64,000 nt of DNA from an uncultured Nitrososphaerota archaeon. Lineage in GTDB: Archaea; Thermoproteota; EX4484-205; JAAOZO01. Shown here piece after piece: positions 32,009-49,512 of this stretch. A program made the position numbers and the translations under genes. The stretch lies in NCBI GenBank assembly GCA_964408285.1, contig CAYOYV010000002.1, positions 32,001 to 96,000 of the forward strand, given 5' to 3'. How positions within the stretch are numbered: the stretch's first letter is position 1; every line of letters begins with the position of its first letter. The notes under the pieces are model-generated. The model ran no database searches, was not told the origin of the DNA, and saw only the letters and a list, made by a program, of their open reading frames with translations.

Positions 32009-32021
32009 GGAACCGTTCACC

Positions 32022-32029
32022 TTTTTAAG
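32022..32029 (+). promoter_or_regulatory. Putative TATA box for herA-nurA
   Basis: TTTTTAAG ending 28 nt before the herA ATG, inside the 49-nt lhr-herA gap. Confidence 0.5.
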
Positions 32030-32057
32030 CCGTTCGCTAATTCTAGAAGTTGTAATC

Positions 32058-33518
32058 ATGTCGGTCTCCGGTTTGGAAAGGGTTGGCATTGTTGCCAGTG
32101 ATTCAAGTGAGGCAAAGGCCAGGCTTCTCCTTGAGGAATCAAGGGAACTGACCGTGAGAGCGGAGGAATTGGTTGTGATTGAGACTCAGAAAGGCGAAGT
32201 CTTGGGAGTGCTCCGAATAGGGAGTGGAATCAACGAGGCACTCAACCCCAATGCTTACAGGCCAAGCATTGCATACGCCAAGAAGGGAGGAATCCCCTCT
32301 GGAGCCAGGGAGATATATACATTCGACATTCATGTAATGGGCGTAATAACTGAGAAAGGGCTGGAACAGAATCGTCTGATCATTCCCCCAAGGAGCAATG
32401 TCTACATCTTCCCGGAAGCTGCTCGCAATCCCCTGGAACATGTTGCCGTGGGCAAGGAGGTGGTCTGGAACGCCCATCTGGATAGGCATGAGAATTGGAA
32501 GATCCCGTTCGACAAGACATTCCTAGCATACCACATAGGCGTCTTTGGAGCTACAGGTAGCGGGAAGTCATGGTTGACCCGATATGTCATAGTTCCTGTA
32601 CTTCTCGAAGCAGGGATGAAGGTCTTGATGCTTGACTGGGGAGGAGCCGACTATGTACCGCATTACGGAAAGAAAGCTATCTCCATGTCTGATCTCAAAC
32701 TGGACGATGAAGCAATTGTGAGATATCTACTTCAGAAGGCAGAGCACTTCGGCTACACCGGGCAGATGAGGGATTCCAATCCAGTGAGGGAGGCCTTGGA
32801 AGATTTTGTCTCAAAACAATGGGAAGAGGAGTGCAGGAAGGAACCTGAGATGATATACATCGACATGAAGAACTACCTCAGGAATCACATTGATGAGGCT
32901 GTCACCAGAGATGATTTCAGGAGGGCAGCTAGGCGACGCATGGATTATGGCTTCAAGAAACTGGATGCATTTGACTTGGGGGCAGTACGGGGCACTTTGG
33001 CACTGGAGGATCTCATCTCAGACCTGAGGAATGAGGAAGGAGGTCTGAGGGTGATAGATATGAGCTTGGTTGGAAGCGACGAGAAGCTGTCGCTGTTCAA
33101 TTCCCTTGCCAGGTTCTTGGAAGATGAGATGGAAATCGGGAAATCGCTCAACATGGCTCTGATTGTGGATGAAGCCCCCCAATACGCTCCTTGGGAACCG
33201 AGGGGGATTCAGGGTGAGGCGACAGAACACATAAAGAACCTTTGTGCTCTTGGAAGAAAACACAACCTTTGCATGTCACTGATCTCCCAGGGAATAGCGG
33301 GAGACATAGGAATCAACGCAGCAGTGAGGAGGAATCTGAATACTCAATTCTTTGGGGCTCTACATCCGCTTGACATGATGGAGGCTGACAACTGGCTCAA
33401 GCCCTATGGCATTCAGAAGGAATATCTCCTATCCCTTAGGCCAGGTCAATTCTATTTTGTCGGGAAGGCAAATCCCTCTCCAATTCCTCTCCTGATAACC
33501 TTCAGGCCGGAGACCTGA
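32058..33518 (+). CDS. herA: HerA/FtsK-family ATPase (DUF87) with N-terminal HAS-barrel-like region
   Basis: HIGVFGATGSGKS (Walker A), LIVDEAP (Walker B), GRKH Arg finger, ISQ sensor, L.PGQF. Confidence 0.9.
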   Translation: MSVSGLERVGIVASDSSEAKARLLLEESRELTVRAEELVVIETQKGEVLGVLRIGSGINEALNPNAYRPSIAYAKKGGIPSGAREIYTFDIHVMGVITEKGLEQNRLIIPPRSNVYIFPEAARNPLEHVAVGKEVVWNAHLDRHENWKIPFDKTFLAYHIGVFGATGSGKSWLTRYVIVPVLLEAGMKVLMLDWGGADYVPHYGKKAISMSDLKLDDEAIVRYLLQKAEHFGYTGQMRDSNPVREALEDFVSKQWEEECRKEPEMIYIDMKNYLRNHIDEAVTRDDFRRAARRRMDYGFKKLDAFDLGAVRGTLALEDLISDLRNEEGGLRVIDMSLVGSDEKLSLFNSLARFLEDEMEIGKSLNMALIVDEAPQYAPWEPRGIQGEATEHIKNLCALGRKHNLCMSLISQGIAGDIGINAAVRRNLNTQFFGALHPLDMMEADNWLKPYGIQKEYLLSLRPGQFYFVGKANPSPIPLLITFRPET

Positions 33519-33524
33519 TCCCTC

Positions 33525-34724
33525 ATGTCGGAGGACTCACACTCTGCCTGGAGCAAACTGCCCATAGATCTTCAAGAGCAGTTCTACGGCAAAGTGGAGC
33601 AGGAAGCCAGGAGCCTGATAAAGGTCCTACAAGAGAGTGGAGTCGCCCTTGAGGAGGCAAAGCCAAAGATAAGGCCATACATACATGCCTCCACATTCGG
33701 AACCGACACGAATACGAAGATAGGGGCTGTGGATGGGTCATTCTCCCCTAGGGCAAGTGAGAGGATTGGGGGTAGATTCGCGGTGTACTCTGCAGGATTT
33801 CTGATGCTAAAGGACAAAGAGATTACAGATGAAGGCTATTGGGGAGACGATTTCAGACAAGATCAATCATATCCTCATCCTCTATTCACAGCAGGGTTGC
33901 AGGTCATCGAGTCCGAAATCGAGAAGGAAGCTTCACTGCGAGCGTTGGAAAAAAACCCAGACCTGCTTCTCGTCGATGGCGGCTTCCTTGGATTCGCATA
34001 TTCTTTATTCAAGATCAGAAAAGAAACAAGCGTTCCGGATTGGCTGGAGAAAAGAGCCCAACATGCTCTGGAGATGACGTATAGATTGCTGGACTCCGGA
34101 AAGTGCGCAGGAGTTGTCAAGAGGGGAAGAAGCAGAGCAATAGGAGGGTGGCTGTCGATGTTGGCAAGAAGAAGGAGCCCTCTTGTTAGATATCTTGACA
34201 AACAGATATTGTACGCCATGATGTCACCCCCTTCGGTTCTAGATTACGCTGAGATCCTAGGACGGCCGGGTTTCCACAGAACACATACAAGAATCAGTGA
34301 GCTTCTAGACAGTGGAAGAACAACGGACCCAATCGAGGCAATGGAAGAGGCTAAGTTCTGGGCTGTGAACTCAATGGCAAAAGCTCTCGGAACCACCGAC
34401 GAGAGAAAGATCAGGGATTTGGAATCACGCATTAACAGGATTCAAATCAGGGTCAGCGAAGATGCTCCTCCCTTTGAACTGGAGCTGGCAGCAGGTTCCG
34501 AAGACCGAATCATGAGAGCTTTGTTCTCAAGCTCGGATAACTTCAATCGGGCAACTGGACTCCCTATCGCGATAGATCTTGTCGATGAATATGTGTCCCT
34601 CCCCATGGAGTTCACAAAGGAATTCGTGACAGAGGTCGAGGCTAGATTGGCACAAATGTACGAAGGGGATCTAAACGACGTAAAAGGATTTTTCTCGAAT
34701 ATGAATCCTCAGAAAGAGTCGTAG
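33525..34724 (+). CDS. nurA: NurA-family nuclease
   Basis: GAVDGS and LLLVDG acidic motifs, GVVKR, terminal GLPIAIDLVD; 6 nt after herA. Confidence 0.85.
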   Translation: MSEDSHSAWSKLPIDLQEQFYGKVEQEARSLIKVLQESGVALEEAKPKIRPYIHASTFGTDTNTKIGAVDGSFSPRASERIGGRFAVYSAGFLMLKDKEITDEGYWGDDFRQDQSYPHPLFTAGLQVIESEIEKEASLRALEKNPDLLLVDGGFLGFAYSLFKIRKETSVPDWLEKRAQHALEMTYRLLDSGKCAGVVKRGRSRAIGGWLSMLARRRSPLVRYLDKQILYAMMSPPSVLDYAEILGRPGFHRTHTRISELLDSGRTTDPIEAMEEAKFWAVNSMAKALGTTDERKIRDLESRINRIQIRVSEDAPPFELELAAGSEDRIMRALFSSSDNFNRATGLPIAIDLVDEYVSLPMEFTKEFVTEVEARLAQMYEGDLNDVKGFFSNMNPQKES

Positions 34725-34825
34725 GTGGTGTCAGGATAAGCAGATAATACAAGCAAATGTGAGACCAGAGATCGGAATTACGAATCTCTTATATAGCTTT
34801 GGGGCTCTGCCTTAATAGCAGAAAA

Positions 34826-37456
34826 ATGAGAAGAGAAGAAATGGGATTAGTAGGCCTCTCGTTCTTGATTCTCTTACTGTTATCGTATGTCACTCCAAGC
34901 ATGCTCTATATGGCATCAGCTCCTGTGTCCGAACTCGCTAGGACATTTTGGCCAACTGATGATGCCCAAATCTATCAGAAATACCCAGATTCCAACTACG
35001 GTGGTCTTACATGGGTGGCCGTCCAGAGCGCGACTTCTGAGAATTGTCGCGGCTTGCTACGCTTTGACCTGAGCAACATCCCGCCCGGTGCCAAGGTGAT
35101 TTCAGCAAGGGTGTATCTGTTCAAATACATCGCACCTTCGGTATCGAGAACGTACTACTGCCATCCCGCCAGTAGTTCCTGGTCAGAAAGCTCACTAACC
35201 TGGAACAATCAGCCAGGAATATACACAACAGGATCAACCACGGTTATAGGTACGACTCCAAGCACATGGTCAAGCTGGGATGTGGCTTCATCGGTTCAGA
35301 AGTTCGCGGCGAGAGATGCTGCCAGTGCCGCATCAAACTACGGATGGAAGATAGGGGATAATAGTGAAGGTTCGGTCACTACTTATCAATCCTTCTTCTA
35401 TTCGAAAGAACACAGCGATGCTGCATATCGACCCTATCTGAGACTGACATATTATCCCCCTCATCTTGAACTCCAAACATATGGCTCGTCATTCGTTGCC
35501 GGGAATTGGGTCAAGATGACAGTGAATAGGAAGGATTACGATAACAACCCAATAACCAGGGGTAATCTCAATGTCAAGATGACCTCAACTTCAACTTCAC
35601 TGAACAAGAAATTCTCTCTGTCAGAGGGAGGAGCAGCTATTACAAGCTTGGTTATTCCAGACGGTTCAAGCTCCAAGGACTTCTGGTATTATGATGACAA
35701 GGCAGGGACTTGGACAATCCAGGCATTCACTGACGATTACATGTACTACGTGAGCGGAGTTCCCCCGTACATGATATTTGAGATGAACTACGGCGATGAT
35801 AAGGCGCAGCAGACTGTGAATCCGGCCGCTCTGGATCGTTTCGTCCTGAATACGATATCGTCTCCCAAGACTGCTGGGGAAGCCTTTATGATAACTATCA
35901 CAGCAAAGGATGTCTACGGCAACACTGTAACAACCTATACCGGCACGAATTCGCTTTCAGACACGACTGGAACAATGGCGCCACCGTTGACGGGTGCCTT
36001 CGTGTCTGGTGTGTGGTCCGGGAATGTAATCATCAATAAGGTCGCTTCCGCAGTTAGGATTTCAACGTCAGGGGGAGGGAAGACAGGGCAAAGTAACGCT
36101 TTCGATGTGAAGGCTGGCCCCCCAGCGAAAATTGCCATAAAGCCAGCGACATTGACTGCTGCTGCAGCAGTCCAATATTCTTCAATCACACTTTCTATTA
36201 GGGACAGTCACGACTTCAATACTTCAAGTGCCTCGGCGATAGTCATCGCGCTATCTACAACATCCCCTGACGGGGAGTTCAGGAATCCAGGAACTACGAC
36301 GAGGATAACCAGCATCACCGTGCCTCCCGGCGCGACTTACGTGCTTGTTGACTATTTTGACATAAGAGGTGGGACTTGGATACTCACCGCCTCTGCTGCG
36401 GGCTTGAGTTCTGGAACAGCAACGGTCACTGTAATCCCTGATACTAGGCCACCGGAAACCAGCATTAATGCCGGTTCTCCCAAGTATCAGACCAGCACAA
36501 CTCTATATGTTACAGATCTCACAGCATTTACGCTCTCTGCTATTGACGACGCTAGCGGAGTAAAGGAGACCAAATACAGGATAGACACCGGGCCCTGGAC
36601 TCTATATTCAGGAGATTTCAATCTGGGTACGTACTCCGAAGGGACTCACACCATCGGATTTTACAGTGTTGACAGGGCAGGCAATTCAGAGCCTGAGAGA
36701 ACTCTATCCGCTTTCATCGACAAGACACCTCCCCGGGTCCAGATCATAGAGCCAGTGGGATCGGTCGTGGCCAAGACAGCTTCTGTCAGATTTAGGGCCT
36801 CAGTTGTGGAAACAGGTTCTGGCATTGCCACTATTGAGTGCATACTTGATGGAACATCAAAGGGCCCGATGGCAAAGGAAGGAGAGGCATATGCAATTAC
36901 CTTGGATGTTGTGCCTGGAATGCATAGATGGAGTGTTGACGCAGTAGACAATATTGGAAACACCTTGGGGGCAACTGCTGAGACTCAATTCATCCTGACA
37001 ATCGATACTGATCCCCCAGTCATATCAAACGTTGCTCTCTCCCCTCCGTCACCTGTTTGGATGGAGCAAATCAAGGTGTCTGCCTCGATAACAGATGCGG
37101 CATCGGGCCTGAAGCAAGCCACCCTATATTACTCAACCGATAGTGGTGCAACTTGGAGCAAGATCACCATGACTCCGACCGCAGGAGCCTTCGAGGCCAC
37201 AATTCCCGCCCAAGGACCAATGGCGAAGGTACAATACTACATCGAGGCCTCGGACCTGCTTGCGAATACAACCAGAAACTCCACTCAGGAGATCTCAATA
37301 GGAATACCGATCTGGGGTTATGGCGCTGGAGGCCTGATCATCGTGCTGATTCTTATATTCCTACTGACAAGGCTCACGGGTAAGCCTGCTCAGGTGCCCT
37401 CGCCCACTTACCCACCACCCCCTCAGCCCCAACCTCCTCCGCCGCCACCTCCCTAG
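34826..37456 (+). CDS. Cell-surface protein: DNRLRE/CBM96-like domain, Ig-like repeats, C-terminal TM anchor and Pro-rich tail
   Basis: Signal/TM; DDAQI....PDSNYG, GLLRFDLSNIP....ISA.VYL, W.E..LTWN.QP, FYSKE....RPYL; repeated DT.PP Ig starts, YSVDRAGN.E. Confidence 0.85.
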   Translation: MRREEMGLVGLSFLILLLLSYVTPSMLYMASAPVSELARTFWPTDDAQIYQKYPDSNYGGLTWVAVQSATSENCRGLLRFDLSNIPPGAKVISARVYLFKYIAPSVSRTYYCHPASSSWSESSLTWNNQPGIYTTGSTTVIGTTPSTWSSWDVASSVQKFAARDAASAASNYGWKIGDNSEGSVTTYQSFFYSKEHSDAAYRPYLRLTYYPPHLELQTYGSSFVAGNWVKMTVNRKDYDNNPITRGNLNVKMTSTSTSLNKKFSLSEGGAAITSLVIPDGSSSKDFWYYDDKAGTWTIQAFTDDYMYYVSGVPPYMIFEMNYGDDKAQQTVNPAALDRFVLNTISSPKTAGEAFMITITAKDVYGNTVTTYTGTNSLSDTTGTMAPPLTGAFVSGVWSGNVIINKVASAVRISTSGGGKTGQSNAFDVKAGPPAKIAIKPATLTAAAAVQYSSITLSIRDSHDFNTSSASAIVIALSTTSPDGEFRNPGTTTRITSITVPPGATYVLVDYFDIRGGTWILTASAAGLSSGTATVTVIPDTRPPETSINAGSPKYQTSTTLYVTDLTAFTLSAIDDASGVKETKYRIDTGPWTLYSGDFNLGTYSEGTHTIGFYSVDRAGNSEPERTLSAFIDKTPPRVQIIEPVGSVVAKTASVRFRASVVETGSGIATIECILDGTSKGPMAKEGEAYAITLDVVPGMHRWSVDAVDNIGNTLGATAETQFILTIDTDPPVISNVALSPPSPVWMEQIKVSASITDAASGLKQATLYYSTDSGATWSKITMTPTAGAFEATIPAQGPMAKVQYYIEASDLLANTTRNSTQEISIGIPIWGYGAGGLIIVLILIFLLTRLTGKPAQVPSPTYPPPPQPQPPPPPPP
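37412..37453 (+). repeat. Low-complexity CCN tract encoding PPPPQPQPPPPPPP
   Basis: 14 codons before the stop, 12 of them Pro. Confidence 0.9.
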
Positions 37457-38441: not shown

Positions 38442-39977
38442 ATGAGTGGGATTAGGTTCAGATATTCCGGCATCGTCGCATTCTCTGCCAATATCCTTTC
38501 GGTCCTCACGGGTCTTATCTTCTCGGTTGTGGTGACAAGGAGGTTATCGGTGCAGGAGTTTGGCACTTGGCAATTCTACTCGAGCTCATTAGCATATTTC
38601 GCCTTGCCCTCATATATAGTGAATTACTGGCTCACAAGGAACATTGGCCGTGGCAAGAGTGCTGTGAATTCAGCTCTGACGTTCAATGCCGTTTTCTCTT
38701 GGCTGGCGACGATCCTTTTCTTCGCAACATCGATTGTTCTGACGAACTACGCTTATGCTTCCAATGAGGTGATTATAGTCTTCGGGATTTGGCTCCTAAC
38801 GTCATATCTCTCTTCCACAACTGACGCCGCTGCCTCCGGTTCGCTTCCACACTTGTACGGATACGGGGTAGCGGTGTTTGAACTGGCCAAGGTCATCTCT
38901 GGCGCGATTCTAGTTGCTTGGCTAAGACTGGGGCTTGCAGGAGCCGTGATTTCCGTCGATATCGCACTATTACTGAGGTTCGTCCTTCTGTATTTCCTTG
39001 TTCCAGAGTCTCTAAAAGGGAGGATTGGGTTCTCAGAGGCATTTGGCTGGCTCAGGAGATTCTGGATTCCGCTAACCAGTGTTTTGCCGGGTCTGATATT
39101 CTCCCTAGATGTAATTCTTGTAACCATAATAACGGGCAATCCAACTTCCGCTGCGTATGTCAGAGCCTCCACGACCTTTTCGATGGTGATTCTATTCTCC
39201 AACTCCCTTTCCATCGCACTGTATCCGAAGCTTCTATCTGGAGGTGGTAGAAAGGAAATCGAGGACTCCCTAAAAATGGTAATGATGTTTGCGATTCCGA
39301 TGTTCTTGGGCATTTTCTTCCTTGCCGAACCATTGCTCTATCTTCTAAGGGCTCAGTATGCCACCGCGGTATGGGTATTGAGAGCCTACGCAACTCTACA
39401 TTTCCTGGGAACGATCAAGGCGATTCTTATCACGATTCTTCTTGGCACAGAGAAAGTCGACATTGACGAAACGGCAACATACAAGGAATTCTCGTCTTCA
39501 TCGTTGATGAAGGTGCCAATGGCCGACATTCTCAATTCATCGATATATATCGGCGTGATTCTAGTTTCGTCCTTCTGGCTGAATTCTATTGGAACCGAAC
39601 CTGTGATGCTCTCACTGAGTCTGGCAGTTATCTACATTGTGGCAATGCTGCCATTTCTCCTATACTATTGGAGGGCCTCGAAGAGAAGAGTGGAGTATTC
39701 GTTCCCGGTTGGGAGTCTCGCAAGATACCTCGCAGCAGGTTCAGTGATGGTTTGCTTCCTGTTGTTCTTCTTCCCAACTGGAGCTATGAGCGAGCAGATA
39801 TTCAACGTCATGGTGTCCCTACTTCCAGTGATCGGGGTAAGTGCCATCCTATACTTCTCAGTTCTGATCGCAATAGATGGAGAAACAAGGCAGCTCGTCG
39901 TATTGGTGCTAGCGAGAATTGAGAAAATCATCAAAGACCTCCAGTCTCCCATTACTCAATCCGACAAGGGGCAATAG
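38442..39977 (+). CDS. MOP-superfamily oligosaccharide flippase / polysaccharide export protein
   Basis: About 14 TM; TRRLS.QEFG.W, LG..GAV, LYPKLL, LA.PLL.LL...Y..A. Confidence 0.8.
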   Translation: MSGIRFRYSGIVAFSANILSVLTGLIFSVVVTRRLSVQEFGTWQFYSSSLAYFALPSYIVNYWLTRNIGRGKSAVNSALTFNAVFSWLATILFFATSIVLTNYAYASNEVIIVFGIWLLTSYLSSTTDAAASGSLPHLYGYGVAVFELAKVISGAILVAWLRLGLAGAVISVDIALLLRFVLLYFLVPESLKGRIGFSEAFGWLRRFWIPLTSVLPGLIFSLDVILVTIITGNPTSAAYVRASTTFSMVILFSNSLSIALYPKLLSGGGRKEIEDSLKMVMMFAIPMFLGIFFLAEPLLYLLRAQYATAVWVLRAYATLHFLGTIKAILITILLGTEKVDIDETATYKEFSSSSLMKVPMADILNSSIYIGVILVSSFWLNSIGTEPVMLSLSLAVIYIVAMLPFLLYYWRASKRRVEYSFPVGSLARYLAAGSVMVCFLLFFFPTGAMSEQIFNVMVSLLPVIGVSAILYFSVLIAIDGETRQLVVLVLARIEKIIKDLQSPITQSDKGQ

Positions 39978-39979
39978 AG

Positions 39980-42900
39980 TTATCTCGTTTCTACTCCCTC
40001 GGCTGGTTGTTCGTATGTCAAGAGTAGCTTTTCAGCTTGGACTTCTGTGTATTTGCTGCCCGAGATTATCGCGACGTTCTTTTTCAGGATGATGCTGGCC
40101 AAAGTCATCGCAGAGCTGATGGCCCCGTCGTCTGAGTCTATTGTGACCGTGTCCACATCCCTGAGTTCCTCCACGAGTCTGGATACAGTGCCCTGTGGAT
40201 TCTCCACCGATATCTTCCTGACTTCTATAGCAGGCGGCCAAATGCCCTCCCTCCACAATTTCCTCTTCAGCTCATTCATTTTCTGAGTCGTTTCTCCTCT
40301 TGAATAGACTATGAGAAGCTGCGGATGATATACCCTAACTAGAGAGAGGAGGGGCTCAATTGAACTTCCGAATGGAGCAGCAACCCTTGCCTTCGAGGCG
40401 GTCCACTCGAATACCAGCCTCCTTATGTGAGAAGCGACTTCGTGGACCTGTGTCTCTGCCATCTTGGGGTATGCGGAGTCTGGGTTTACCCTGAGTGAGA
40501 CCTGAAATCCAGTTCCTTCTCCGCTTTTGACTTCTATTGTATTATTCGAGGTGAATCCCTTGTTTCCGCTTCTGCTGTACTTGAACCTAACAGAGTGAAG
40601 AGGCCTACCATATTCGTCAACAGTGGACTTCTTTGAGACTTCGCCTATCAGTATCTCTAGTTGCTTCCCGCTTGCCGGCAACCTTTCGGCCAGATAATCG
40701 ACCAGAATATTCACCTTCTCTTGGGGAACTCGGGCAGGTATTTGCAGGATCCATTCATTTCCTATCTTCGCATGTTCCTCAAGCTTCCACTTAATCCTGA
40801 GAGAAGGCGTTGCAATTCTCGATGCGGTAAATGCAGGGATTGCTGCGCCTATCACGGAGACCAATACAGAGATCCCGACTATTGAGAGCATGTCGCCTGT
40901 TGATGTCTTGACGTCGACGGGTATTGAAACGCCTCCTAGAGAGAAAAGACGGAATGCGGCGAAACTCAGCAGATAACCGATTCCTCCACCTATTATTCCA
41001 AGCATAGCTCCCTCCGCCACATGGAGAAGGAATATGTGCGTTGGATTCAGGCCCACAGCGGAAAATGCGAATATCTCCGACCTTCTCTCTTGGACCGATG
41101 AGAGCAAAACCACTAGTATGTTGAGGACGATTATGACAAGTGGGATAATTGCTGAAACTCCCGTCAGCTCATTGACGGAACCCCTGAAGAAGAAAACCGG
41201 ATTCCCACCACTGGGAAGTGCGAGGGCATAGAAATTAGCGAGCAAAGACAGCCTTTCTCCCGCAGAAAGAATGTCCTCGCTACGGACTTCACAATACAGT
41301 TTTGACACCCTTGCTCCAAGTTTCATTGAGGTGGTGTCAGACGCAAGCAATAGGAATTCCGGGTCAACAGTAGTGTTCAACGCTGCCGGGCCTGCGACGA
41401 TCTGTATTGGCAGCCATTCCGCTCCATCTGGGTCCTTTAGACTCCTCAGTCTTGAACCATCGAAAACTCCAACAATCAACAGCTTGACATTCTTGAACAC
41501 CAATGACATGCCGACTTCCAGTCCCTGTGATCTTGCAACGTAGTCACTTATGAGAACGGAATTTCCCTCCAAGAATAATCTGTCTGTTGCGTTTCGAGGA
41601 TTGGTTGATGCCTTGATAACATCAATGTTTGGATCGCCTTTCGCTATTCCTCTCACGGCCATTATCGTAACTGAGCCTATCTCCCCTATGCCAGACTGGG
41701 ATGGGGGCGATTCAGCCTTCGCATAGGCCCCTATTAGGCCCGACTGGCTTGAGACAAAGTCCAAATCAATCCGAGTGAAGAATCCAGTGGGTTTTGACAC
41801 CAGAATAAGACTTGGGCTTTCGAGTGGCCACCTGGAATTCATAACGAATTGGCTAGCCCCAATAGTTGTCCTCATCGCGCTGAAAGTCGATAATCCCAAC
41901 ACAAACGTGGTAAGGGATATCAGGGATAGCAGTGTCCTTGTCTTCCTTTTCTTCATGTTCCCTGACGAGTAAGAAATGGCCAACATTATGGCGGGGACTA
42001 GGCTGACCCCTCCCTCACTCCTATAGTTGCTCATCAGCCTCGGCAAGAGGAAGAAAAGAATCAAAGCCACGAACAGGAAATAGGATCCGATTATGGCCTC
42101 CCCGAAGGAGAATTGAGCAAATCCAGGATATGTCTGATACACGATCGTCATCACCACTGCGAATGAGATAACAAGGAAGACTACTTCATCGCTGATCTTC
42201 TCAAACAACGAACCTGCCAAAGCAACGCAGACCAAGATCACAAGAGCGAAGATGGCCACTTGGCTGGTCGTCGCGCCCTTGTATATTGTATTCATAGCAC
42301 CCAGTATGTTCATGCTGACCAAGTACGCCCTCTTCTGGGCTTCTGCACCAACAGCAGGATTCACTGTTGAGTTGAATAGGATCAAGGCTCTGTCTATTTC
42401 TTCTAGCCTTTGGGATTCCAGGCCAAGATAGAACCCCTGCAAGCTCTGCTTCTCCACCGCCTTCTTGGCCTGTTCCACCATTCTATCGACCAGCATTTGA
42501 TTCCTAGCAACCAACATTGAGGCGAGTGAGGTGGAATTCACCGTCTCGCTTTCCTCCGCAATCAGAGGCATCGAAGCATTCCCCAACGAGCCATAGATTA
42601 TCTCATTGCCGATCCTTGCCTTCAGGGTGATTGCCAGAGGGATGTCAGAGGGAATTACAATGCTGCTGGGGTCTATGTTGAGAAGCCTGAGGTAAACGGC
42701 GTTCGTACTGGTGTAGTTCGTAACGAGGCTGGTTCCTTTTGGCAAAGCATAGACCTTCTCGAAAAGGACTCCGATTGCTTTGAATGATAGCTCGATGTCC
42801 GGGATTCTGTCTTGAGATATCTCAGTGACGAAGTTTGCTATTTTGACAATGGAACCTGGGATTAGGGTCAGATTAGCCGATTTCCTGTCGCCCGGGTTCG

Positions 42901-45427
42901 CATTGCCAAGACTCGCAATGACAGGAACATATACGCGATCTGACTCAATCACGGGGCCCCATAGCTCCAATCTACTTGTGCTCGGCATGCAAGTATAGGC
43001 CGAGCCGTTACGGACTTCCAAGAACCTGTAGGAATCACCCAGGACTAGCAGGAACAGAGAACGCGAAGGCATTTCGGCCCCAGTCAAAGAAACCTGCAAA
43101 GCAGCTGCCGCCCTGACGGAGAAGTCAAAGTGATTTACATCCTGAATGGAACCGTTGTTTGACTCGATGTACGTTTCGAATCTCAGACGATGACTCGAGT
43201 CCAAAAACGCTGGCATACGCAATGGAAAATGCCCAGCAAGAAAGGGCACCGAGTCGCTGCTTGGGATTGTTACGTTGAAAATGCCTGAATCCATGATTGA
43301 AGAGGTTGTCAGATCCAAGAGCCTCCAACTAAGCCTAGCGTTCTTCGCAGCATTCGGATCGTCATTGACTATCCAAACGTTGAGTCTGACAAGGGTTTCG
43401 AGGTCGCAGCTTAGCTCGGTACGCTTTGTGATGAAATCCCCTGCCCATTCTATGATCGCATGAGTCGGCCTAAACGCCTCGGAGACAATAAGACTGGAGG
43501 ACTTCTGCGTCCCATAGTAGTCCAATAGAGAGCCGGATACGGAGGGAAGGTAGTCCCTGAATAATCCTACAGTGATCCCTTCGGTATAGTTCCCCTTCAA
43601 CAACCTTGCCCTTTCAATTGCCGTCTTCAATATGGTGGCCTGATATCCCTGGCTCTCGTTCACGTAGTCAGAAAGGCTCTTGTATTCCTCAGGATTACCA
43701 AGATAGGAATACCATAGATTTGCTGAATAGCCATAGCCCTCCAACGAACGAATTAATCCGGAGGAGATCTGGTTTCCTTGGAACATAGACCAGAAGATAG
43801 ACTGAGCTGAAGGAAGGGATTGAGATCCCAATACGACCGGGAATGCCGACAAGTAGGATCTATAATTCTCCCAAGTCCGAGAACCCCATCCGAAATTCAG
43901 GAATTCATTCTCACTGCCAGAACCTTCTATGGTATGTCTATCGTGGTCCAACTCGCCCAACAACTCGGACAGAGACGCATCTGCCATCCTGTTGGCTCCT
44001 AATCTGAATAGATCTCCTGCACTTTCATCTGTCCAAGGGGGGAGTGTGTGAATACACCAGAGGACAACGCTCGGGCTGTTGTAGAGCATAAGTACCAACC
44101 TGATCAGTTGTCTCTGTGCCTCCCTCAAGGCCTCTTTGTCTGTGTCCAAAGACTTGGCATATCCGATCAAAGGCAGATCGCCCTGGACCATGAAGCCGTG
44201 GGCGTCAGCGTATTCATAGAAAGCAAGGGGTTCAACATGTGCGATTGGTCTAAGGAAATTCACATTCATCTTGCGAAGTAGCTCATAGTCCGCGGCCAGA
44301 TTGGCTGTTGAAGATGTGAAATTGTATGGATCCGATACATACGTTGTCCCCCTTAGGAAAATTCGTCTTCCGTTAATCGAGAACCTGGATCCAGTGTTAC
44401 CAAAAGCTGCCACGAAATCTCTGAAGCCAAATGCTCCGCTTATAGAGCCCTGACTTTTCGAGCCAACGAGCAGCTCGACCTTGAACTGATAGAGGTTCGG
44501 AGAGCCAAGATCCCAAGTTGACCAAGGAAGTGGATTTCCCGCTGCCAGATTCGCTTCCACCCACTTTGCCTCACCTGGATCAAGATCTGCCTTAATCCAG
44601 GACATCAAGGGTGATTCCTTCGAGCCGTCTAGACTCACCGACAAGGAGATGTCTGTTGAAGCCTTTGCTGTACCGGTGTTCTTTACGAACAAACGGAAGT
44701 TTGCACTTGCGCTGCCCCCTAGGGTCCCAGCAACAAGCGCGAGTTGAACGACAGTGCTGCCCGTTGTTGCCAGTTCGACATCATTCCACAGACCGATAGG
44801 CATTGCCGGATCTGTGCCAATTGGACCAATGCTTTGCCCAATGGGTCCGCTTGTTCCGTAGAGGCCAGTTAGGAGCCCGATCGACTCCTTATCTACAAGT
44901 GAATCAACGAACACCGTCAGCAGATTGTCAGAACCATGAACAAGGACATTAGTCACATCGAAAAAGAAGGGAGAAAAATATCCTGTGTGAGAACCTAGGT
45001 ACCTACCATTGAGCCAAACATCTGCCTTTGCCCAAACGCCCTTGAAGACGATAATGTATCTCTCCCCCTTCAATTCAGTAGGCGGCGTGAAGGTCCTCCT
45101 AAGCCAGAGCGTGGAATTATGTCTCGTAGACTTGAATTCAAAGGGGACGACAACCTTGTTCCAAGAGCCATCATCATAGGATTCTTCGTAATATAATTCA
45201 TAGTTGCCCCGCTCGAATGTGTCGTAGACATATTTCCATTCTCCGCTAAGTGAGATCTTAGTAATCGCGAAATAGTTGGGTTGTATGAAGGTTTGGAGCA
45301 CCTCTTCCGTTATCCCCTTCTCAGCCGGAACTATGATGTATTGTAGAATTGGAAGGAAGGCGATCCAAATCGTGAACAATGCGATTAGGACCGAAGACAA
45401 CAAGCGCAGCCTCGTCCTATTCACCAA
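39980..45427 (-). CDS. 1815-aa fusion: TM anchor, GH2-like ectodomain (apparently non-catalytic), MacB/FtsX-type permease, cytoplasmic domain and CARF-like C-terminus
   Basis: GH2: SLSGEW, LWLRRTF, FKGV..KADVWLNG.YLGSH.GYF.PF.FDVT, W..WDLGSPNLY, FGFR, INGRRIFLRG, AHVEP..FYE.AD..G. FtsX: RKTRTLL.L, SVQERRSEI..FSAVGLNP.HI..L...EG, PA..ASR..TP. Confidence 0.88.
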   Translation of the reverse strand: MVNRTRLRLLSSVLIALFTIWIAFLPILQYIIVPAEKGITEEVLQTFIQPNYFAITKISLSGEWKYVYDTFERGNYELYYEESYDDGSWNKVVVPFEFKSTRHNSTLWLRRTFTPPTELKGERYIIVFKGVWAKADVWLNGRYLGSHTGYFSPFFFDVTNVLVHGSDNLLTVFVDSLVDKESIGLLTGLYGTSGPIGQSIGPIGTDPAMPIGLWNDVELATTGSTVVQLALVAGTLGGSASANFRLFVKNTGTAKASTDISLSVSLDGSKESPLMSWIKADLDPGEAKWVEANLAAGNPLPWSTWDLGSPNLYQFKVELLVGSKSQGSISGAFGFRDFVAAFGNTGSRFSINGRRIFLRGTTYVSDPYNFTSSTANLAADYELLRKMNVNFLRPIAHVEPLAFYEYADAHGFMVQGDLPLIGYAKSLDTDKEALREAQRQLIRLVLMLYNSPSVVLWCIHTLPPWTDESAGDLFRLGANRMADASLSELLGELDHDRHTIEGSGSENEFLNFGWGSRTWENYRSYLSAFPVVLGSQSLPSAQSIFWSMFQGNQISSGLIRSLEGYGYSANLWYSYLGNPEEYKSLSDYVNESQGYQATILKTAIERARLLKGNYTEGITVGLFRDYLPSVSGSLLDYYGTQKSSSLIVSEAFRPTHAIIEWAGDFITKRTELSCDLETLVRLNVWIVNDDPNAAKNARLSWRLLDLTTSSIMDSGIFNVTIPSSDSVPFLAGHFPLRMPAFLDSSHRLRFETYIESNNGSIQDVNHFDFSVRAAAALQVSLTGAEMPSRSLFLLVLGDSYRFLEVRNGSAYTCMPSTSRLELWGPVIESDRVYVPVIASLGNANPGDRKSANLTLIPGSIVKIANFVTEISQDRIPDIELSFKAIGVLFEKVYALPKGTSLVTNYTSTNAVYLRLLNIDPSSIVIPSDIPLAITLKARIGNEIIYGSLGNASMPLIAEESETVNSTSLASMLVARNQMLVDRMVEQAKKAVEKQSLQGFYLGLESQRLEEIDRALILFNSTVNPAVGAEAQKRAYLVSMNILGAMNTIYKGATTSQVAIFALVILVCVALAGSLFEKISDEVVFLVISFAVVMTIVYQTYPGFAQFSFGEAIIGSYFLFVALILFFLLPRLMSNYRSEGGVSLVPAIMLAISYSSGNMKKRKTRTLLSLISLTTFVLGLSTFSAMRTTIGASQFVMNSRWPLESPSLILVSKPTGFFTRIDLDFVSSQSGLIGAYAKAESPPSQSGIGEIGSVTIMAVRGIAKGDPNIDVIKASTNPRNATDRLFLEGNSVLISDYVARSQGLEVGMSLVFKNVKLLIVGVFDGSRLRSLKDPDGAEWLPIQIVAGPAALNTTVDPEFLLLASDTTSMKLGARVSKLYCEVRSEDILSAGERLSLLANFYALALPSGGNPVFFFRGSVNELTGVSAIIPLVIIVLNILVVLLSSVQERRSEIFAFSAVGLNPTHIFLLHVAEGAMLGIIGGGIGYLLSFAAFRLFSLGGVSIPVDVKTSTGDMLSIVGISVLVSVIGAAIPAFTASRIATPSLRIKWKLEEHAKIGNEWILQIPARVPQEKVNILVDYLAERLPASGKQLEILIGEVSKKSTVDEYGRPLHSVRFKYSRSGNKGFTSNNTIEVKSGEGTGFQVSLRVNPDSAYPKMAETQVHEVASHIRRLVFEWTASKARVAAPFGSSIEPLLSLVRVYHPQLLIVYSRGETTQKMNELKRKLWREGIWPPAIEVRKISVENPQGTVSRLVEELRDVDTVTIDSDDGAISSAMTLASIILKKNVAIISGSKYTEVQAEKLLLTYEQPAEGVETR

Positions 45428-45451
45428 ACTGGCCTTGTACTTTTTTGCAAC

Positions 45452-45459
45452 TTTATAAA
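45452..45459. promoter_or_regulatory. Palindromic TATA box probably serving both divergent genes
   Basis: TTTATAAA in a 58-nt gap, 24 nt from TTG 45427 (minus) and 26 nt from TTG 45486 (plus). Confidence 0.7.
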
Positions 45460-45485
45460 CGCTTCAATGTTGTCTGGAAATTGGA

Positions 45486-47894
45486 TTGGATAGCTCGCAG
45501 AGGATTTCTTTGGCGTCTCAGGTCTTCAGTGCTTTGAAGGCAAGGATCATCTTGATCTTGATGATCGCAATTTTGGTCTTTGCCCTTGCGTCCATAAAAA
45601 CACTGTTCAGGGAAGGCATGATCCTTGGTCGGGACCATCCATTCCACATGCTTAATTGCTACTTCACAACGCTCTATATGTTACCGTCATTCAACATTCT
45701 TGGTTGGGATCCATACAACAACTATGGCTTGGTCTTCAATCAATACTACGATGCCGGGACGAACATCCTCATATCTCTGATCTACTACGCCTCCCTGGAA
45801 CAGCTGAATATATTCGATTCCTACAAGGTTGCCTTCGCACTTGCCTATGTTCTCATGGCACCGGTTACCTACCTCTTCATTTATTCGATTTCGAAGGATA
45901 AAATGGCCGGGTTGGTGGGAGCACTGCTTTCCATAATCGTGTTCCCAGCCGAGTCTTCCTTGTTCGATGCCGGTTTAAGACAAATGTACGAGACAGGAAT
46001 GTGGCCTGAGAGATTCGGCAACGTACTCTGCTTTTTCGGTCTTGCTCTACTGATTCTGTCCTTTGAGGAGAAAAGCCTCTCGAAGAGGCTGCTGACAACG
46101 GCATGGACTTCTGTGATTTTCGCCTGGACCGTCTTGACTCACGTTGTCGCAGGCCTATCTTTGGCTTCACTGGCAGCAGTCGGATGGCTCCTGCCAAGTC
46201 TCCATGACATCAAGTCCGCCATTACCGAAAGCAAAGACGGAATTCCTGGAATGGTCACGACAATTCTGCATCAGAACCGGAGGAAAACGTTCTCCTATCT
46301 CTCGGTTTGGGCCCTTTCCATCGGCCTGTGTGCTTTCTGGACTATTCCCCTCCTGGAGACTTTAGAGAAGTTTTACAGCTTCCCCGCTATCTCCTCATCG
46401 GGGGGGACAGACATGCTTGTCCAGGTATTCCAGAGCCTCCCATGGTATGTGTTGGGTTTCTATGTCATAGGGGCCGCAACACCTTTTCTCGACAGGAGAC
46501 AGATAAGGAATCCTCTTGCGATTGTGTCCCTTGCATCAGTCCTACTTCTTCAGATCCTGTCGTTGGTCAACCCAAACGACAAGTTCGTTGGGACAAGGTT
46601 GGTCTTCTCCGCATTGTTCTCCCTCATCTACTACCTGACAACTGATGATTACGCTGTTGGTTTTTCCCTCACCGGGACCTCACTTCTCCTTCTTCTTTCC
46701 ACGGGTCCAAGCACGCATGTGATCGATTTGCTCATCTTCAGACTGGACCTTTCGAACGCATTCTCCGTCGTTGCCTCTTTCGGGTATTCCAAGTTCGCCT
46801 CGGTGGCGCGGCTTGTGATTGTCATACTGTCTTCGATCGGATTCTCAAGATTGGCCAGCTTCCTTTATGCTCATGCTAGAACCGCTGGCTCCAAGAGGGA
46901 ATTCGTCCCTGTCGTCTATTCAATCGTGCTTGGATTCATGATCTTCCTATTCCTCAACTTCCAGATCAGCACTCAGATGGAGAATACTGATCTGAACTAT
47001 CCCTGGTCCCAGCAGATCAACCTGAAGCTCTCATCCGATTTTCGACTTGTGAGTCAAGCCGATTCGCTGATCTCATGGATCAAGCAGAACGGGGATAGCA
47101 ATTCCTACATCTTGATGCAGGACATCCTTGATATCGGAGACTGGATGGGTTTCCCGAAATCCCATTATCTGTACCTTACACCGGTTTTCACTGGAAAACC
47201 CATCGTGGGAGGAGTAGAGGGCAGCAACTATATCACCAATCCGATCTCCACTACCGACGGGGGCCAAATTCTGTCAATGCCAATCTCCAGGATAGTTGGG
47301 GAACTGGGCACATTCGACAGGCTGCTGGGAGAATTGGGAATAGGCCATGTTGTGGTCTTCGATATTAGATTGATCAAAGCCATGAATGCCAGCAGCCTGT
47401 TCCGCCTCTCGTACTATGACGGGTTATTTGCCGTCTTCAGAAGAGCAGAGCCCGCGTACATAGCCAGCGTTCAGAACGCCGGGGAAATCCTTGAAGCGAC
47501 CTACGAGATAAATGCGATGTCCTTCAAGGTCTCTGGGGCTGAAGGCAACTCGTCACTTCGTATAAGAGCTGTCGATTATCCGGGATGGTCTGCCAAGGTG
47601 AACGGAGAAAGCACAGAGATTCATCAGTATCGCCCTAAGATACAATCAGTGATGAATTGGAAGGGGGTCGTCGTTCCGGACTATGAAGTCCCATTCATTG
47701 AAATCTCATTGCCCGCCGGTCAATCACGAGTAGTTCTTGATTACCATAGGTCAACGGCCGGGGACTCGATCACAGGTGTCTCGCTTGTGCTGTTTGCCGC
47801 CTTCAACCTGCTTGGATCAGCCGTAATCGTGAAAGATCTCTATGCTAAGAGTGGTTCATCTGTCAAACATGCTGCGTTGAAGGGATTTCAGTGA
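45486..47894 (+). CDS. Polytopic YfhO / PTPS-related membrane protein, probable GT-C glycosyltransferase
   Basis: First loop GRDHPFH...GWDPY..YG..FNQYY, more than 12 TMs, LTH, AFW.IP, C-terminal YPGWSAKVNG beta domain and final TM. Confidence 0.78.
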   Translation: MDSSQRISLASQVFSALKARIILILMIAILVFALASIKTLFREGMILGRDHPFHMLNCYFTTLYMLPSFNILGWDPYNNYGLVFNQYYDAGTNILISLIYYASLEQLNIFDSYKVAFALAYVLMAPVTYLFIYSISKDKMAGLVGALLSIIVFPAESSLFDAGLRQMYETGMWPERFGNVLCFFGLALLILSFEEKSLSKRLLTTAWTSVIFAWTVLTHVVAGLSLASLAAVGWLLPSLHDIKSAITESKDGIPGMVTTILHQNRRKTFSYLSVWALSIGLCAFWTIPLLETLEKFYSFPAISSSGGTDMLVQVFQSLPWYVLGFYVIGAATPFLDRRQIRNPLAIVSLASVLLLQILSLVNPNDKFVGTRLVFSALFSLIYYLTTDDYAVGFSLTGTSLLLLLSTGPSTHVIDLLIFRLDLSNAFSVVASFGYSKFASVARLVIVILSSIGFSRLASFLYAHARTAGSKREFVPVVYSIVLGFMIFLFLNFQISTQMENTDLNYPWSQQINLKLSSDFRLVSQADSLISWIKQNGDSNSYILMQDILDIGDWMGFPKSHYLYLTPVFTGKPIVGGVEGSNYITNPISTTDGGQILSMPISRIVGELGTFDRLLGELGIGHVVVFDIRLIKAMNASSLFRLSYYDGLFAVFRRAEPAYIASVQNAGEILEATYEINAMSFKVSGAEGNSSLRIRAVDYPGWSAKVNGESTEIHQYRPKIQSVMNWKGVVVPDYEVPFIEISLPAGQSRVVLDYHRSTAGDSITGVSLVLFAAFNLLGSAVIVKDLYAKSGSSVKHAALKGFQ

Positions 47895-48285
47895 AGGGAA
47901 CCAACTGTCAATAATCGCATATGGAAATCGCCACCTGTTCAGAGCACGACTCCGAGCAGCACAATCAGAGCTCACAGAAGATGAGCTCGCGTTAAATGTG
48001 ATTCCAACTAATACCAAGCTAAGTGAAAGACAAATGGAGATATGAGGCAGAATAGGCAAATGGGGAAGATCCAGAATCAGCAAAGAAATCGATTGGAAGG
48101 AAATGGCCAAAGACCTTAGGGCTGACCTCGGTAGATCAGCATTCGCCTCCAGAACCACATATTACTTCAGCTGAAGAAGGGAGGTGGCGCACTAGGTTGA
48201 GAGGCTTTCTAAGACAACTATTCCTAACATATCGTGAGCTTGCCTTAAATACGGTTGTGAGAAGGAACTAAACAAGGTGAGAAAC

Positions 48286-49512
48286 ATGGCAGAGAAGATC
48301 GTCGTCGAACCTGGAAGAACTGCGGATTTGGACACCTTCGATGGAGATTTGGTGGCAGGTGGAAATTCGGTCATCAAATCCAAGTCAGGAGGCCCAATCG
48401 TGGTGACGGGCACGGCTAAATTCAAGGGAGATTGCAACATTCATTCCAATTTCCAAGCCAAGAACGTAAGGGGAGAAGACGGGAGAATCCATGTGCTTGG
48501 TGATCTTACGGTCGATGAATCAATTGATGTCCGAGAGGGGGAAGTCTTGGTTGATGGCCAAGCAAAAGCCAAGGAAATAGATGTCGAGAGGAGGCTGACG
48601 GTCAAAGGAGACCTGCATTCAGAGAGGGTGGACGTCGGGGGAAGTCTAGAGGTCGGGCGAGACTCCAATGTTACAAGAGTCAATGTGGGAGGAACCATGT
48701 CAATGAATGGCAATCTGAAGGGATCACAGCTGGATGTAGGTGGGTCGGCTGATGTAAGAGGAACAGTTGAACTTGAGAAGCTCTCTGTAGGCGGAAGCGC
48801 GAAGGTGGGATCAGGAACAATAAACTACATATCAGTGGGTGGATTCCTTGAGTCAACCGGGAAGCTCAGGTTTCGAGAAATTGATGTAGGAGGCGCAGTA
48901 AGATTGGCCTCTGGGGAAGGGGAAGGAATAATCAATGTCGGCGGAAAGGTGGATGTTGATGGAGACATCGAATTCAAGGAAATCGACGTTGGAGGGATGG
49001 CAACGATCAGAGGCAATGCAAAGGGCAAGAAGGTAGAGGTAGGAGGGAAGCTCAGAGTGGACAAGAGCGCGAAGATAGATGATAGTCTCGAAGTCGGTGG
49101 ATCAGTCGACGTCCATGATGACCTCAGCGGAGGCGACATTGAAGTGGGAGGCTCTCTTCGAAGCAACATATGCATAGCACGCAAGGTGAGAGTTGGCGGA
49201 AGGGTCGAGACGGAAAAAGGAACCAAGGCGGATGTCTTCGAGATAGGAAAGCGTGGGAATGTGAGAGGCCCTATCGTCGCAACCCGCGTAAGGATTGCAG
49301 ATGGAGCCCAGGTCGAGGACATCTATGCAGACGAAGTGGAAATTCGCAGGAATTCCTCCGCTCGAAATGTGTTCGCAAGAGCAGCAAGGATTGAAGGTGG
49401 ATGTGAAATCTCGGGGGAGGTGTTGTACACGGATAGGTTGGATTCCGACAGGGATGTTCAGTTCGGTTCAGAGCCCAAAAAAGTAGAAAAACTGCCGGGC
49501 CCCCCCGTTTAG
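48286..49512 (+). CDS. Bactofilin-like (polymer-forming) beta-helix repeat protein
   Basis: 12 successive hxVGG repeats at about 16-18 aa period; SD-like GGTGA before ATG 48286. Confidence 0.8.
   Translation: MAEKIVVEPGRTADLDTFDGDLVAGGNSVIKSKSGGPIVVTGTAKFKGDCNIHSNFQAKNVRGEDGRIHVLGDLTVDESIDVREGEVLVDGQAKAKEIDVERRLTVKGDLHSERVDVGGSLEVGRDSNVTRVNVGGTMSMNGNLKGSQLDVGGSADVRGTVELEKLSVGGSAKVGSGTINYISVGGFLESTGKLRFREIDVGGAVRLASGEGEGIINVGGKVDVDGDIEFKEIDVGGMATIRGNAKGKKVEVGGKLRVDKSAKIDDSLEVGGSVDVHDDLSGGDIEVGGSLRSNICIARKVRVGGRVETEKGTKADVFEIGKRGNVRGPIVATRVRIADGAQVEDIYADEVEIRRNSSARNVFARAARIEGGCEISGEVLYTDRLDSDRDVQFGSEPKKVEKLPGPPV

Follow-up and report, generated by a model that had tools for sequence, protein, structure and literature searches.

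The stretch of DNA analysed here comes from an uncultured Nitrososphaerota archaeon and is referred to throughout as the window (the whole 64,000 nt, corresponding to G000:C2:32001-96000, where G000 is this genome, 93.7% complete and 1.82 Mb). It includes a gene for an 1815-amino acid (aa) protein, hereafter the giant, that resembles membrane subunits of ATP-binding cassette (ABC) systems of type VII and, head-to-head with it, a gene for an 802-aa C-type glycosyltransferase (GT-C). This pair and the machinery in which it may take part are the subject of the analysis. Coordinates without a prefix are window positions, and numbers beginning with G, C, L and f are our labels for genomes, contigs, loci and families, respectively. 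The features at the locus are as follows.

38442..39977, + strand: 511-aa Wzx/MOP-like membrane protein (open reading frame; family widespread in the phylum, MOP call weak)
39980..45427, - strand: 1815-aa giant, putative type VII ABC membrane subunit (open reading frame, Pfam, hydropathy, structure model)
40028..40393, - strand: CARF-fold tail of the giant, residues about 1679-1800, with an invariant S-D-D at the ligand-loop position
40394..40792, - strand: KA1-like/helix-grip cytoplasmic domain of the giant, residues about 1546-1678, shared by every giant of the family
40793..41980, - strand: MacB/FtsX module of the giant, residues about 1150-1545, comprising transmembrane (TM) helix 1, an outer core domain, and TM2-4 with a coupling helix
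43103..45280, - strand: GH2 head of the giant, residues about 50-775, closest solved relative the beta-mannosidase 5n6u
45452..45459, no strand: palindromic TATA box between divergent starts, from the sequence of the gap
45486..47894, + strand: 802-aa GT-C glycosyltransferase in the YfhO/PTPS_related/DUF6541 neighbourhood (open reading frame, structure model, alignment)

The genes for the 511-aa protein and the giant are convergent with their stop codons 2 nt apart, and the starts of the giant and GT-C genes are divergent and separated by a gap of 58 nt. Inside this gap is one TTTATAAA, a perfect palindrome located 24 nt from the start of the giant gene and 26 nt from the start of the GT-C gene. 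The TTTATAAA octamer is found 11 times in the 1.82-Mb genome, and the copy in the gap is likely to be a bidirectional promoter for the giant and the GT-C. The three reading frames, the 2-nt spacing and the head-to-head arrangement around a single box had all been described in a first-pass annotation of this DNA, and every coordinate given there was borne out.

The domain order in the giant is an anchor helix, the GH2 head, beta domains and a helical stalk, three extra TM helices, the MacB/FtsX module, the KA1-like domain and the CARF-fold tail. Pfam found GH2 domains spanning residues 88-459 (PF02837 and PF00703 above their cut-offs, PF02836 just below) and FtsX at 1425-1538 (49.5 bits; cut-off 25.5), and together with the alignment to 5n6u showed that the jelly-roll, Ig and TIM-barrel domains of the head are in GH2 order. 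Over the whole head, profile A8 matched 5n6u at E 2e-67, and GH2 beta-mannosidases were the best sequence matches. A structure model of residues 960-1815, built from 42 sequences (pLDDT 82.8, pTM 0.55), matched MacB (5gko, Foldseek E 6e-10) and also LolC/E. In a wide structure search the MacB/FtsX module matched 5xu1 (Z 16.7) and FtsX 8tzj (Z 15.7, root-mean-square deviation (rmsd) 3.8), and the KA1-like domain matched 3ost (Z 10.0, rmsd 2.8, 103 residues aligned). Pfam and sequence searches alone gave no match for the tail; in structure, residues 1679-1799 match the CARF domains of Csa3 (6wxq, Z 13.6, rmsd 2.8, 118 aligned), Can2 (7bdv, Z 13.1) and Card1 (Z 10.7). The anatomy proposed in the first pass, a dead GH2 head, an FtsX module and a CARF-like tail, is supported. 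From hydropathy and the model, the head, stalk and MacB core are predicted to lie outside the membrane and the KA1-like and CARF domains inside. N-x-S/T sequons number 12 up to residue 1000 of this giant and 1 after residue 1500, and the outer parts of giants include 5 to 22 each.

The catalytic state of the head was examined in 45 orthologues of >1600 aa that are mutually different in their C-terminal halves. In the giant of this genome, H460-T-L-P stands where an active acid/base site has H-N-E-P, with L462 replacing the Glu, and V531-V-L-G stands where the nucleophile site would have T/S-E-F-G, with V532 replacing the Glu, such that neither the Glu after strand 4 nor the Glu after strand 7 of a GH2 active site is present. 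Both glutamates (H-N-E-P and E-F-G) are found in 16 orthologues, the nucleophile only in one, and neither in 28; L064 and L065 are among the loci with an intact head. The description of the GH2 head as dead thus applies to the order to which this archaeon belongs and fails as a general rule. In a tree of 23 rows, which was built by a quick method and is weak, as long branches meet in it, all dead forms from this order fall into a single group and the half-dead form groups with the intact ones. The dead TIM barrel is 36-38% identical between this genome and other dead forms, a level equal to or above that of the outer MacB core, and retains R394, H397, H460 and a G-W pair at 513-515. Because the barrel has kept this identity and these residues, the dead head would be expected to have a binding role.

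Other forms of the head were also encountered. A second, more decayed GH2 giant of 1694 aa in which parts of the barrel are deleted (L037:7660-12744 and L057) sits behind an OPT-like gene and a gene for a 489-aa surface protein. A 2093-aa giant with a dead head (L169:6972-13253) includes an insertion of ~300 residues near profile positions 551-577. Free-standing GH2 proteins of 743-824 aa (L093:6908-9139 and L191-L196) are close to the giant head and are candidates for its ancestor enzyme.

The canonical CARF loop that binds cyclic oligoadenylate is T-G-G-x-K/R. The giant does not include it and has an acidic S-D-D-G in its place, in the loop D-S-D-D-G-x-L-S. S1765, D1766 and D1767 are found in 44 of the 45 orthologue rows, and R1710, also in the tail, in 43. 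The tail has no effector domain, and it is also found on headless giants of 1050-1170 aa and so is not limited to GH2 giants. Cas10 profiles gave no match in G000, G339 and G107, a match in G261 and a weak one in G012. The ligand of the tail is probably not a cyclic oligoadenylate.

The 802-aa protein has no Pfam or NCBIfam match, the cut-offs for YfhO (PF09586) and PTPS_related (PF10131) not being reached. A search of 1.84 billion representatives yielded 252 matches at E<=0.001; among the 32 of these that were scanned, nine included PF10131 or YfhO at E<=0.01, and DUF6541 was also seen among the distant relatives. In its Atlas neighbours (0.98-0.99), these families are found on 33-52% of members. 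A structure model built from 102 sequences (pLDDT 94.3) has a polytopic TM domain, a loop after TM1 and an outer alpha/beta domain, as expected for the GT-C fold, and its top structure matches (Foldseek E 6e-9) are GT-C enzymes only: STT3 (8agc, Z 23.0, rmsd 3.6, 481 aligned), AglB (3waj, Z 19.6), AftD (6wbx, Z 18.7 over 569 residues), DPY19 (Z 15.8) and ArnT (Z 15.6). Hence the GT-C fold, on which the first-pass annotation had staked its reading, is present. An Asp after TM1 (D50) is present in 98 of the 102 rows. This genome has a separate STT3-family gene. The 802-aa protein is likely to be a pentofuranosyl transferase, for the reasons set out below, and it probably attaches ribose to surface glycans. 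In two f12 genomes, the end of the GT-C gene is overlapped by a gene for a GH39-like membrane-anchored protein (L056:10003-11412 and L071:7570-8985), that is, another glycosidase beside the GT-C family.

Of 401 genomes of the phylum, 24 encode a GH2-headed giant, either complete or fragmented. The conserved adjacency of giant and GT-C that the first pass had asked for in homologues was found, the two genes being head-to-head in 15 of these 24 genomes, at 17 loci and under five family labels (G000; ten f4 genomes, of which G021 and G024 have two copies each; G319, G339, G261 and G363). Contig ends hide whatever adjoins the giant in G010, G011 and G107, and in G333 the giant is in pieces and there is no GT-C at that place. 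The pair was also found at two further Thermofilaceae loci (L120 and L121) and at nine of 41 metagenome loci. The head-to-head order is retained across families at 32-38% identity, a second copy of the entire pair is found in G021, G024 and L161 (L161:7881-16223, in tandem), and the same two groups appear in the giant tree and the GT-C tree. In 12 f4 loci the intergenic gap is 100-109 nt long and includes two back-to-back TATA-like boxes. A second GT-C clade adjoins M28-giant or OPT genes in three of four loci. L061 (G319:C45) groups with f4 in the tree despite its other family label, in a genome without mini-FtsX (see below), and is possibly a misplaced contig. In two Thermofilaceae-type genomes (G333 and G375; L083, L084 and L078), the giant and GT-C genes are in pieces through either decay or assembly error.

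In relatives, the GT-C gene is followed by a gene of the UbiA family whose best profile is that for decaprenyl-phosphate phosphoribosyltransferase (NF008977), with scores for the three proteins examined (175-198 bits) below the cut-off of 234 bits; one such gene is at L038:11814-12671. Of the 31 genomes that include the GT-C, 29 have this gene, and it was not found in any of the 370 others, though kin among them are not independent, and it tracks the GT-C also when unlinked (six f28 genomes). The two GT-C genomes without a UbiA match are G005, where the GT-C is cut by a contig end, and the genome studied here. The best matches found in G000 are other UbiA proteins (E about 1e-9 to 1e-11) and no remnant of a synthase was seen. 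In the relatives, the motifs N-D-x-x-D-x-x-x-D and R-x-x-E are present, with N58, D59, D62, D66, R177 and E180 invariant in 11 of 11 rows. This pattern is that of the residues tested in the Citrobacter synthase (N247, D248, D251, D255, R366 and E369), which, according to Kelly et al. 2024 (PMC11127046), is a PPPRS-type synthase that works with a MATE flippase and a GT-C to add ribofuranose outside the membrane. A DprE1-type ALO domain was not found in any of five genomes, while it was found in three of 14 controls. Arabinose made via DprE1 is therefore disfavoured, and ribose is the likelier sugar.

Other candidates for the making of the donor were considered. The first pass had suggested looking for a GT2 polyprenol-phosphate sugar synthase. 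This genome has nine GT2 matches, but in the loci that were read no GT2 gene adjoins the pair; it is a UbiA-type gene that tracks the GT-C and is thus the candidate for the linked donor enzyme. A DHH-like neighbour of f4 was rejected as the phosphatase as it was not found in five of five other genomes, and only in G339 does a PHP gene adjoin the synthase. A BacA gene lies immediately behind the giant in the majority of f4 loci and behind the synthase in G375 (L099).

No ATPase is encoded within the giant locus. The first pass had also suggested looking elsewhere in the genome for a LolD/MacB-type ATPase: there are five LolD-like ATPases at E<1e-60, two of which track the giant family. Three are beside ordinary permeases, one is beside a gene for a 201-aa FtsX protein without an outer domain (mini-FtsX, on C18), and one is alone (on C1). 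The candidate motor genes are located as follows.

G000:C18:18121-19460 and C1:146864-147589: mini-FtsX and two LolD-like ATPases (L101-L103 with the PqqD gene)
G000:C1:118652-119191: PqqD-like gene (PF05402), scattered from the other motor genes here

Co-occurrence was assessed in 61 relatives, 33 with at least two giant matches and 28 others. Mini-FtsX was found in 30 of the 33, ATPases at E<=1e-90 in 32 and PqqD in 28, compared to none of the 28 others, counts that are weakened as the mini-FtsX may itself be among the giant matches and kin are not independent. Mini-FtsX, which is single-copy in this genome, is also found in 29 of the 31 GT-C genomes, against 66 of 321 of the phylum sample, and the GT-C is thus almost restricted to genomes that have this motor. 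At two loci from bacteria of the Planctomycetes-Verrucomicrobia-Chlamydiae (PVC) group, L133 and L135, genes for an ATPase, mini-FtsX, a second ATPase, PqqD and a giant are together with OPT genes. The motor genes also cluster with giants in L088 and L092, and in seven f31 genomes about 2.5 kb at most separates mini-FtsX from a giant with a CARF tail. The genome studied here encodes four more FtsX giants (C30:294-6825, C3:180320-188773, C4:77161-80277 and C4:90486-93710), two of them M28-headed beside OPT/DUF6785 genes and two headless. From these patterns of linkage and co-occurrence, it is likely that one motor (mini-FtsX, the two ATPases and PqqD) is common to all FtsX giants.

The 511-aa protein had been taken for a flippase and the third member of a three-gene module. 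The giant/GT-C part of that module is conserved, but the flippase-like gene is adjacent only in this genome, and it was rejected as a module member. The protein has no Pfam match and no match to a sequence in the PDB, and one of 22 aligned family members matches PF13440 (6e-7), making its MOP status weak. The family is present in 40 of the 61 relatives, many without giant or GT-C, and was found beside the pair in none of 20 flippase loci, none of 40 giant and GT-C-paralogue loci and none of 41 metagenome loci. In G033, a member is ~3 kb from two headless giants.

Several flanking genes were recorded. Consecutive genes at 29132-34724 encode an Lhr-like helicase, a HerA-like ATPase and a NurA-like nuclease, and an Lhr-like gene is also close to the giant/GT-C pair in several f4 loci. 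The cluster is flanked by genes for an anchored surface protein of 885 aa that has Ig-like repeats and a CBM96 domain (34799-37456) and for a 411-aa bactofilin-like beta-helix protein (48277-49512). A BacA/UppP polyprenyl-diphosphatase is encoded at 58838-59767, 11 kb from the pair.

The reading that we favour, with a probability of about 0.45, is that the locus is part of an archaeal system in which ribofuranose is transferred from a lipid carrier to a surface glycan, and that this transfer is coupled to an ATP-driven type VII ABC subunit which binds or trims the same glycan. The giant would belong to a set of interchangeable membrane subunits of a MacB/LolCDE-like machine, and would most likely be completed in trans by mini-FtsX and the two LolD-like ATPases, with the PqqD-like protein. 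Its outer GH2 head would hold a glycan; orthologues of Thermofilaceae type may also cut it, while here the head would only bind. The UbiA-type synthase would make a polyprenyl-phosphate pentose carrier from phosphoribosyl pyrophosphate (PRPP), and the co-promoted GT-C would add the pentofuranose, most likely ribofuranose, to the glycan outside the membrane. The acceptor is probably an N-glycan of surface proteins, for example the giants themselves or a cargo. ATP-driven movement of the head may then present, move or release the glycan, with the CARF tail as a regulatory input. A bolder version, in which the locus specifies a glycan-editing machine powered by ATP, with a head that trims or holds, a GT-C that caps with ribose, a CARF tail that reads a non-CRISPR ligand, and swappable giants on one motor, is doubtful.

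A number of observations weigh against the favoured reading. A UbiA-type synthase was not found in this genome by repeated searches, which included the gap after the GT-C gene, the scores of the synthases of relatives are below the profile cut-off, and the nine GT2 matches are alternative sources of a donor. No common candidate for a 5'-phosphatase that tracks the module was found, and no flippase tracks it in the 20 flippase loci. A clan A GH2 enzyme is not expected to cut an alpha-D-ribofuranoside, and hence the head and the transferase need not share a bond. The giant and GT-C genes are 7.7 kb apart in G285 and separated in G001, G003, G005 and G375. G107 has an intact GH2 giant and no GT-C or UbiA match, and eight f12 genomes have the GT-C and UbiA genes but nothing that matches the GH2-giant profile at E<=1e-100. 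In L178, L180 and L182 an intact giant is head-to-head with another giant amid sugar-catabolism genes, and in L181 and L037 a GH2 giant is behind an OPT-like gene. The link between giant and GT-C is not obligatory.

Some of these observations can be accommodated if the giant is a foraging receptor that captures or cuts outside glycans and feeds OPT-fold permeases, with the co-promoted GT-C being a separate decorator that glycosylates the machine or surface proteins. The intact giants found without GT-C amid sugar-catabolism genes, the GH2 giants that follow OPT genes in L037 and L181, the other giants of this genome that adjoin OPT/DUF6785 genes, the GT-C paralogues that also flank M28-giant/OPT operons and the sequons in the outer part of the giants all fit this explanation. 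However, no OPT gene is beside the giant in the 17 head-to-head loci, save two that are 3-7 kb off in G363, and a dead head whose TIM barrel has kept its identity fits binding better than feeding. The position of BacA, behind the giant in the majority of f4 loci, and that of the synthase, behind the GT-C, point to lipid-carrier chemistry. We consider foraging unlikely, though it retains an appreciable share of the probability. The locus could also be an export or maturation line for peptides or small glycoproteins, in which the PqqD/RRE-like protein recognises a cargo, OPT moves it, dead heads hold it and the GT-C glycosylates it. In most relatives that have giants PqqD co-occurs with them, in both archaea and bacteria it adjoins giants at some loci, the heads are degenerate in two enzyme folds that are not related (M28 and GH2), and the best structure matches of the GT-C are the protein-glycosylating STT3 and AglB. 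The scores for STT3 and AftD are, however, close (Z 23.0 and 18.7), with AftD covering more of the protein, the genome has its separate STT3-family gene, and genes for a cargo were not observed close to any of the loci, making such a line improbable.

The first-pass annotation had favoured a sensor, in which the dead head reads the surface glycan and is coupled to the CARF domain, and the flippase is the third member; in the form weighed here, the signal passes inward with no motor of its own. The CARF fold with its invariant S-D-D-G loop, the absence of an ATPase from the locus, and the MOP-type flippases that serve known three-component systems (PMC11127046, PMC3871713) are consistent with this. 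A pure sensor is, however, less likely because the giant looks like an ABC membrane subunit with ATPases encoded elsewhere, and a dedicated ATPase pair tracks the giant family. In addition, the CARF tail is without an effector and is also on the headless giants, no other genome has the flippase gene adjacent, and Cas10 was not matched in G000, G339 and G107. We regard this explanation as quite improbable. Least likely, and very improbable, is that the giant and GT-C are functionally unlinked neighbours that share a promoter by chance. The pair is split in four genomes and each gene is found without the other in whole families, but the head-to-head order at 32-38% identity across families, the duplication of the pair as a pair and the second GT-C clade, again beside giant/OPT genes, are not what chance would be expected to leave.

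Three parts of the favoured reading were not met with in the literature searched, namely an archaeal pathway for transfer of a PRPP-derived lipid-linked pentose, a type VII ABC subunit that combines a glycosidase head with a CARF tail, and a motor common to several giants. That search (titles and the openings of abstracts, including those on archaeal pentose glycans, with few subscription journals covered) returned no description of the system or its parts. The reading predicts ribose on the surface glycans of Brockarchaeota- and Thermofilaceae-type cells, which are hot-spring archaea, and one motor would serve giants that occur in roughly a fifth of the Thermoproteota genomes sampled, as well as in PVC bacteria. 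Heads that are active, half-dead or dead would provide a natural series for the change from enzyme to binding module within a membrane machine, and a CARF domain with an acidic pocket and no effector points to a ligand other than the usual cyclic oligoadenylates.

Several known systems share parts with this one. The GH2 beta-mannosidases (5n6u, 2je8 and 9nfe) are the best sequence matches over the whole head, but the head of the giant is fused to the membrane and both glutamates are lost in 28 of the 45 orthologues. The strand-2 motif of the giant is (F/H)AHVEP, whereas in 5n6u it is WGGG, and the sugar is therefore likely to be different. The tail is alike in fold to the CARF domains of Csa3, Can2, Card1 and Csm6, from which it differs in having no effector and an acidic S-D-D-G loop, in a genome with no Cas10 match. 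The M28-headed FtsX giants found with OPT/DUF6785 permeases share the membrane and KA1-like core (16-26% identity), and here a GH2 head replaces the M28 head, a CARF tail is present, and the GT-C and phosphoribosyl synthase replace the OPT genes as partners.

On the glycosylation side, the closest system is that of Citrobacter, with PPPRS, a MATE flippase and GT136, which as described in PMC11127046 is alike in having a UbiA-type synthase with the tested motif residues, seen here in the relatives of this genome, and a GT-C with an Asp after TM1. The present system is archaeal, has no fused HAD phosphatase and no linked flippase, and its GT-C is tied to an ABC giant and not to an O-antigen cluster. 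As far as the main text of that paper goes, archaea appear only in the title of a reference. Other three-component pentofuranose systems, namely the mycobacterial DPPRS/DprE1-E2/Aft-Emb system and the arabinosylation of Pseudomonas pilin cited there, differ from this one in that no DprE1-type domain was found in the five genomes. An archaeal precedent for the transfer of a single sugar from a lipid carrier onto a protein-bound N-glycan is AglD/AglR/AglS of Haloferax, in which, in the account given in PMC3871713, a lipid-phosphate monosaccharide donor, a flippase and an outer transferase extend the glycan. There, the donor is dolichol-phosphate-mannose made by a glycosyltransferase, whereas here it would come from a PRPP-type UbiA enzyme and be used beside a type VII ABC giant.

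With the type VII ABC systems (MacB, LolCDE, FtsEX, YtrEF, HrtBA, YbbAP and BceAB), the giant shares the four-helix FtsX module, the outer core and the coupling helix, and LolD-like ATPases co-occur with the giant family. It differs from them in having ~1050 extra outer residues, which form the GH2 head, the beta domains and the stalk, three further TM helices, and cytoplasmic KA1-like and CARF domains, and in that the ATPases and a mini-FtsX without an outer domain are encoded elsewhere and are apparently common to several giants. Hence, two known kinds of system, a type VII ABC giant and a GT-C that uses a lipid-linked pentose, appear to be joined here in a previously undescribed way.

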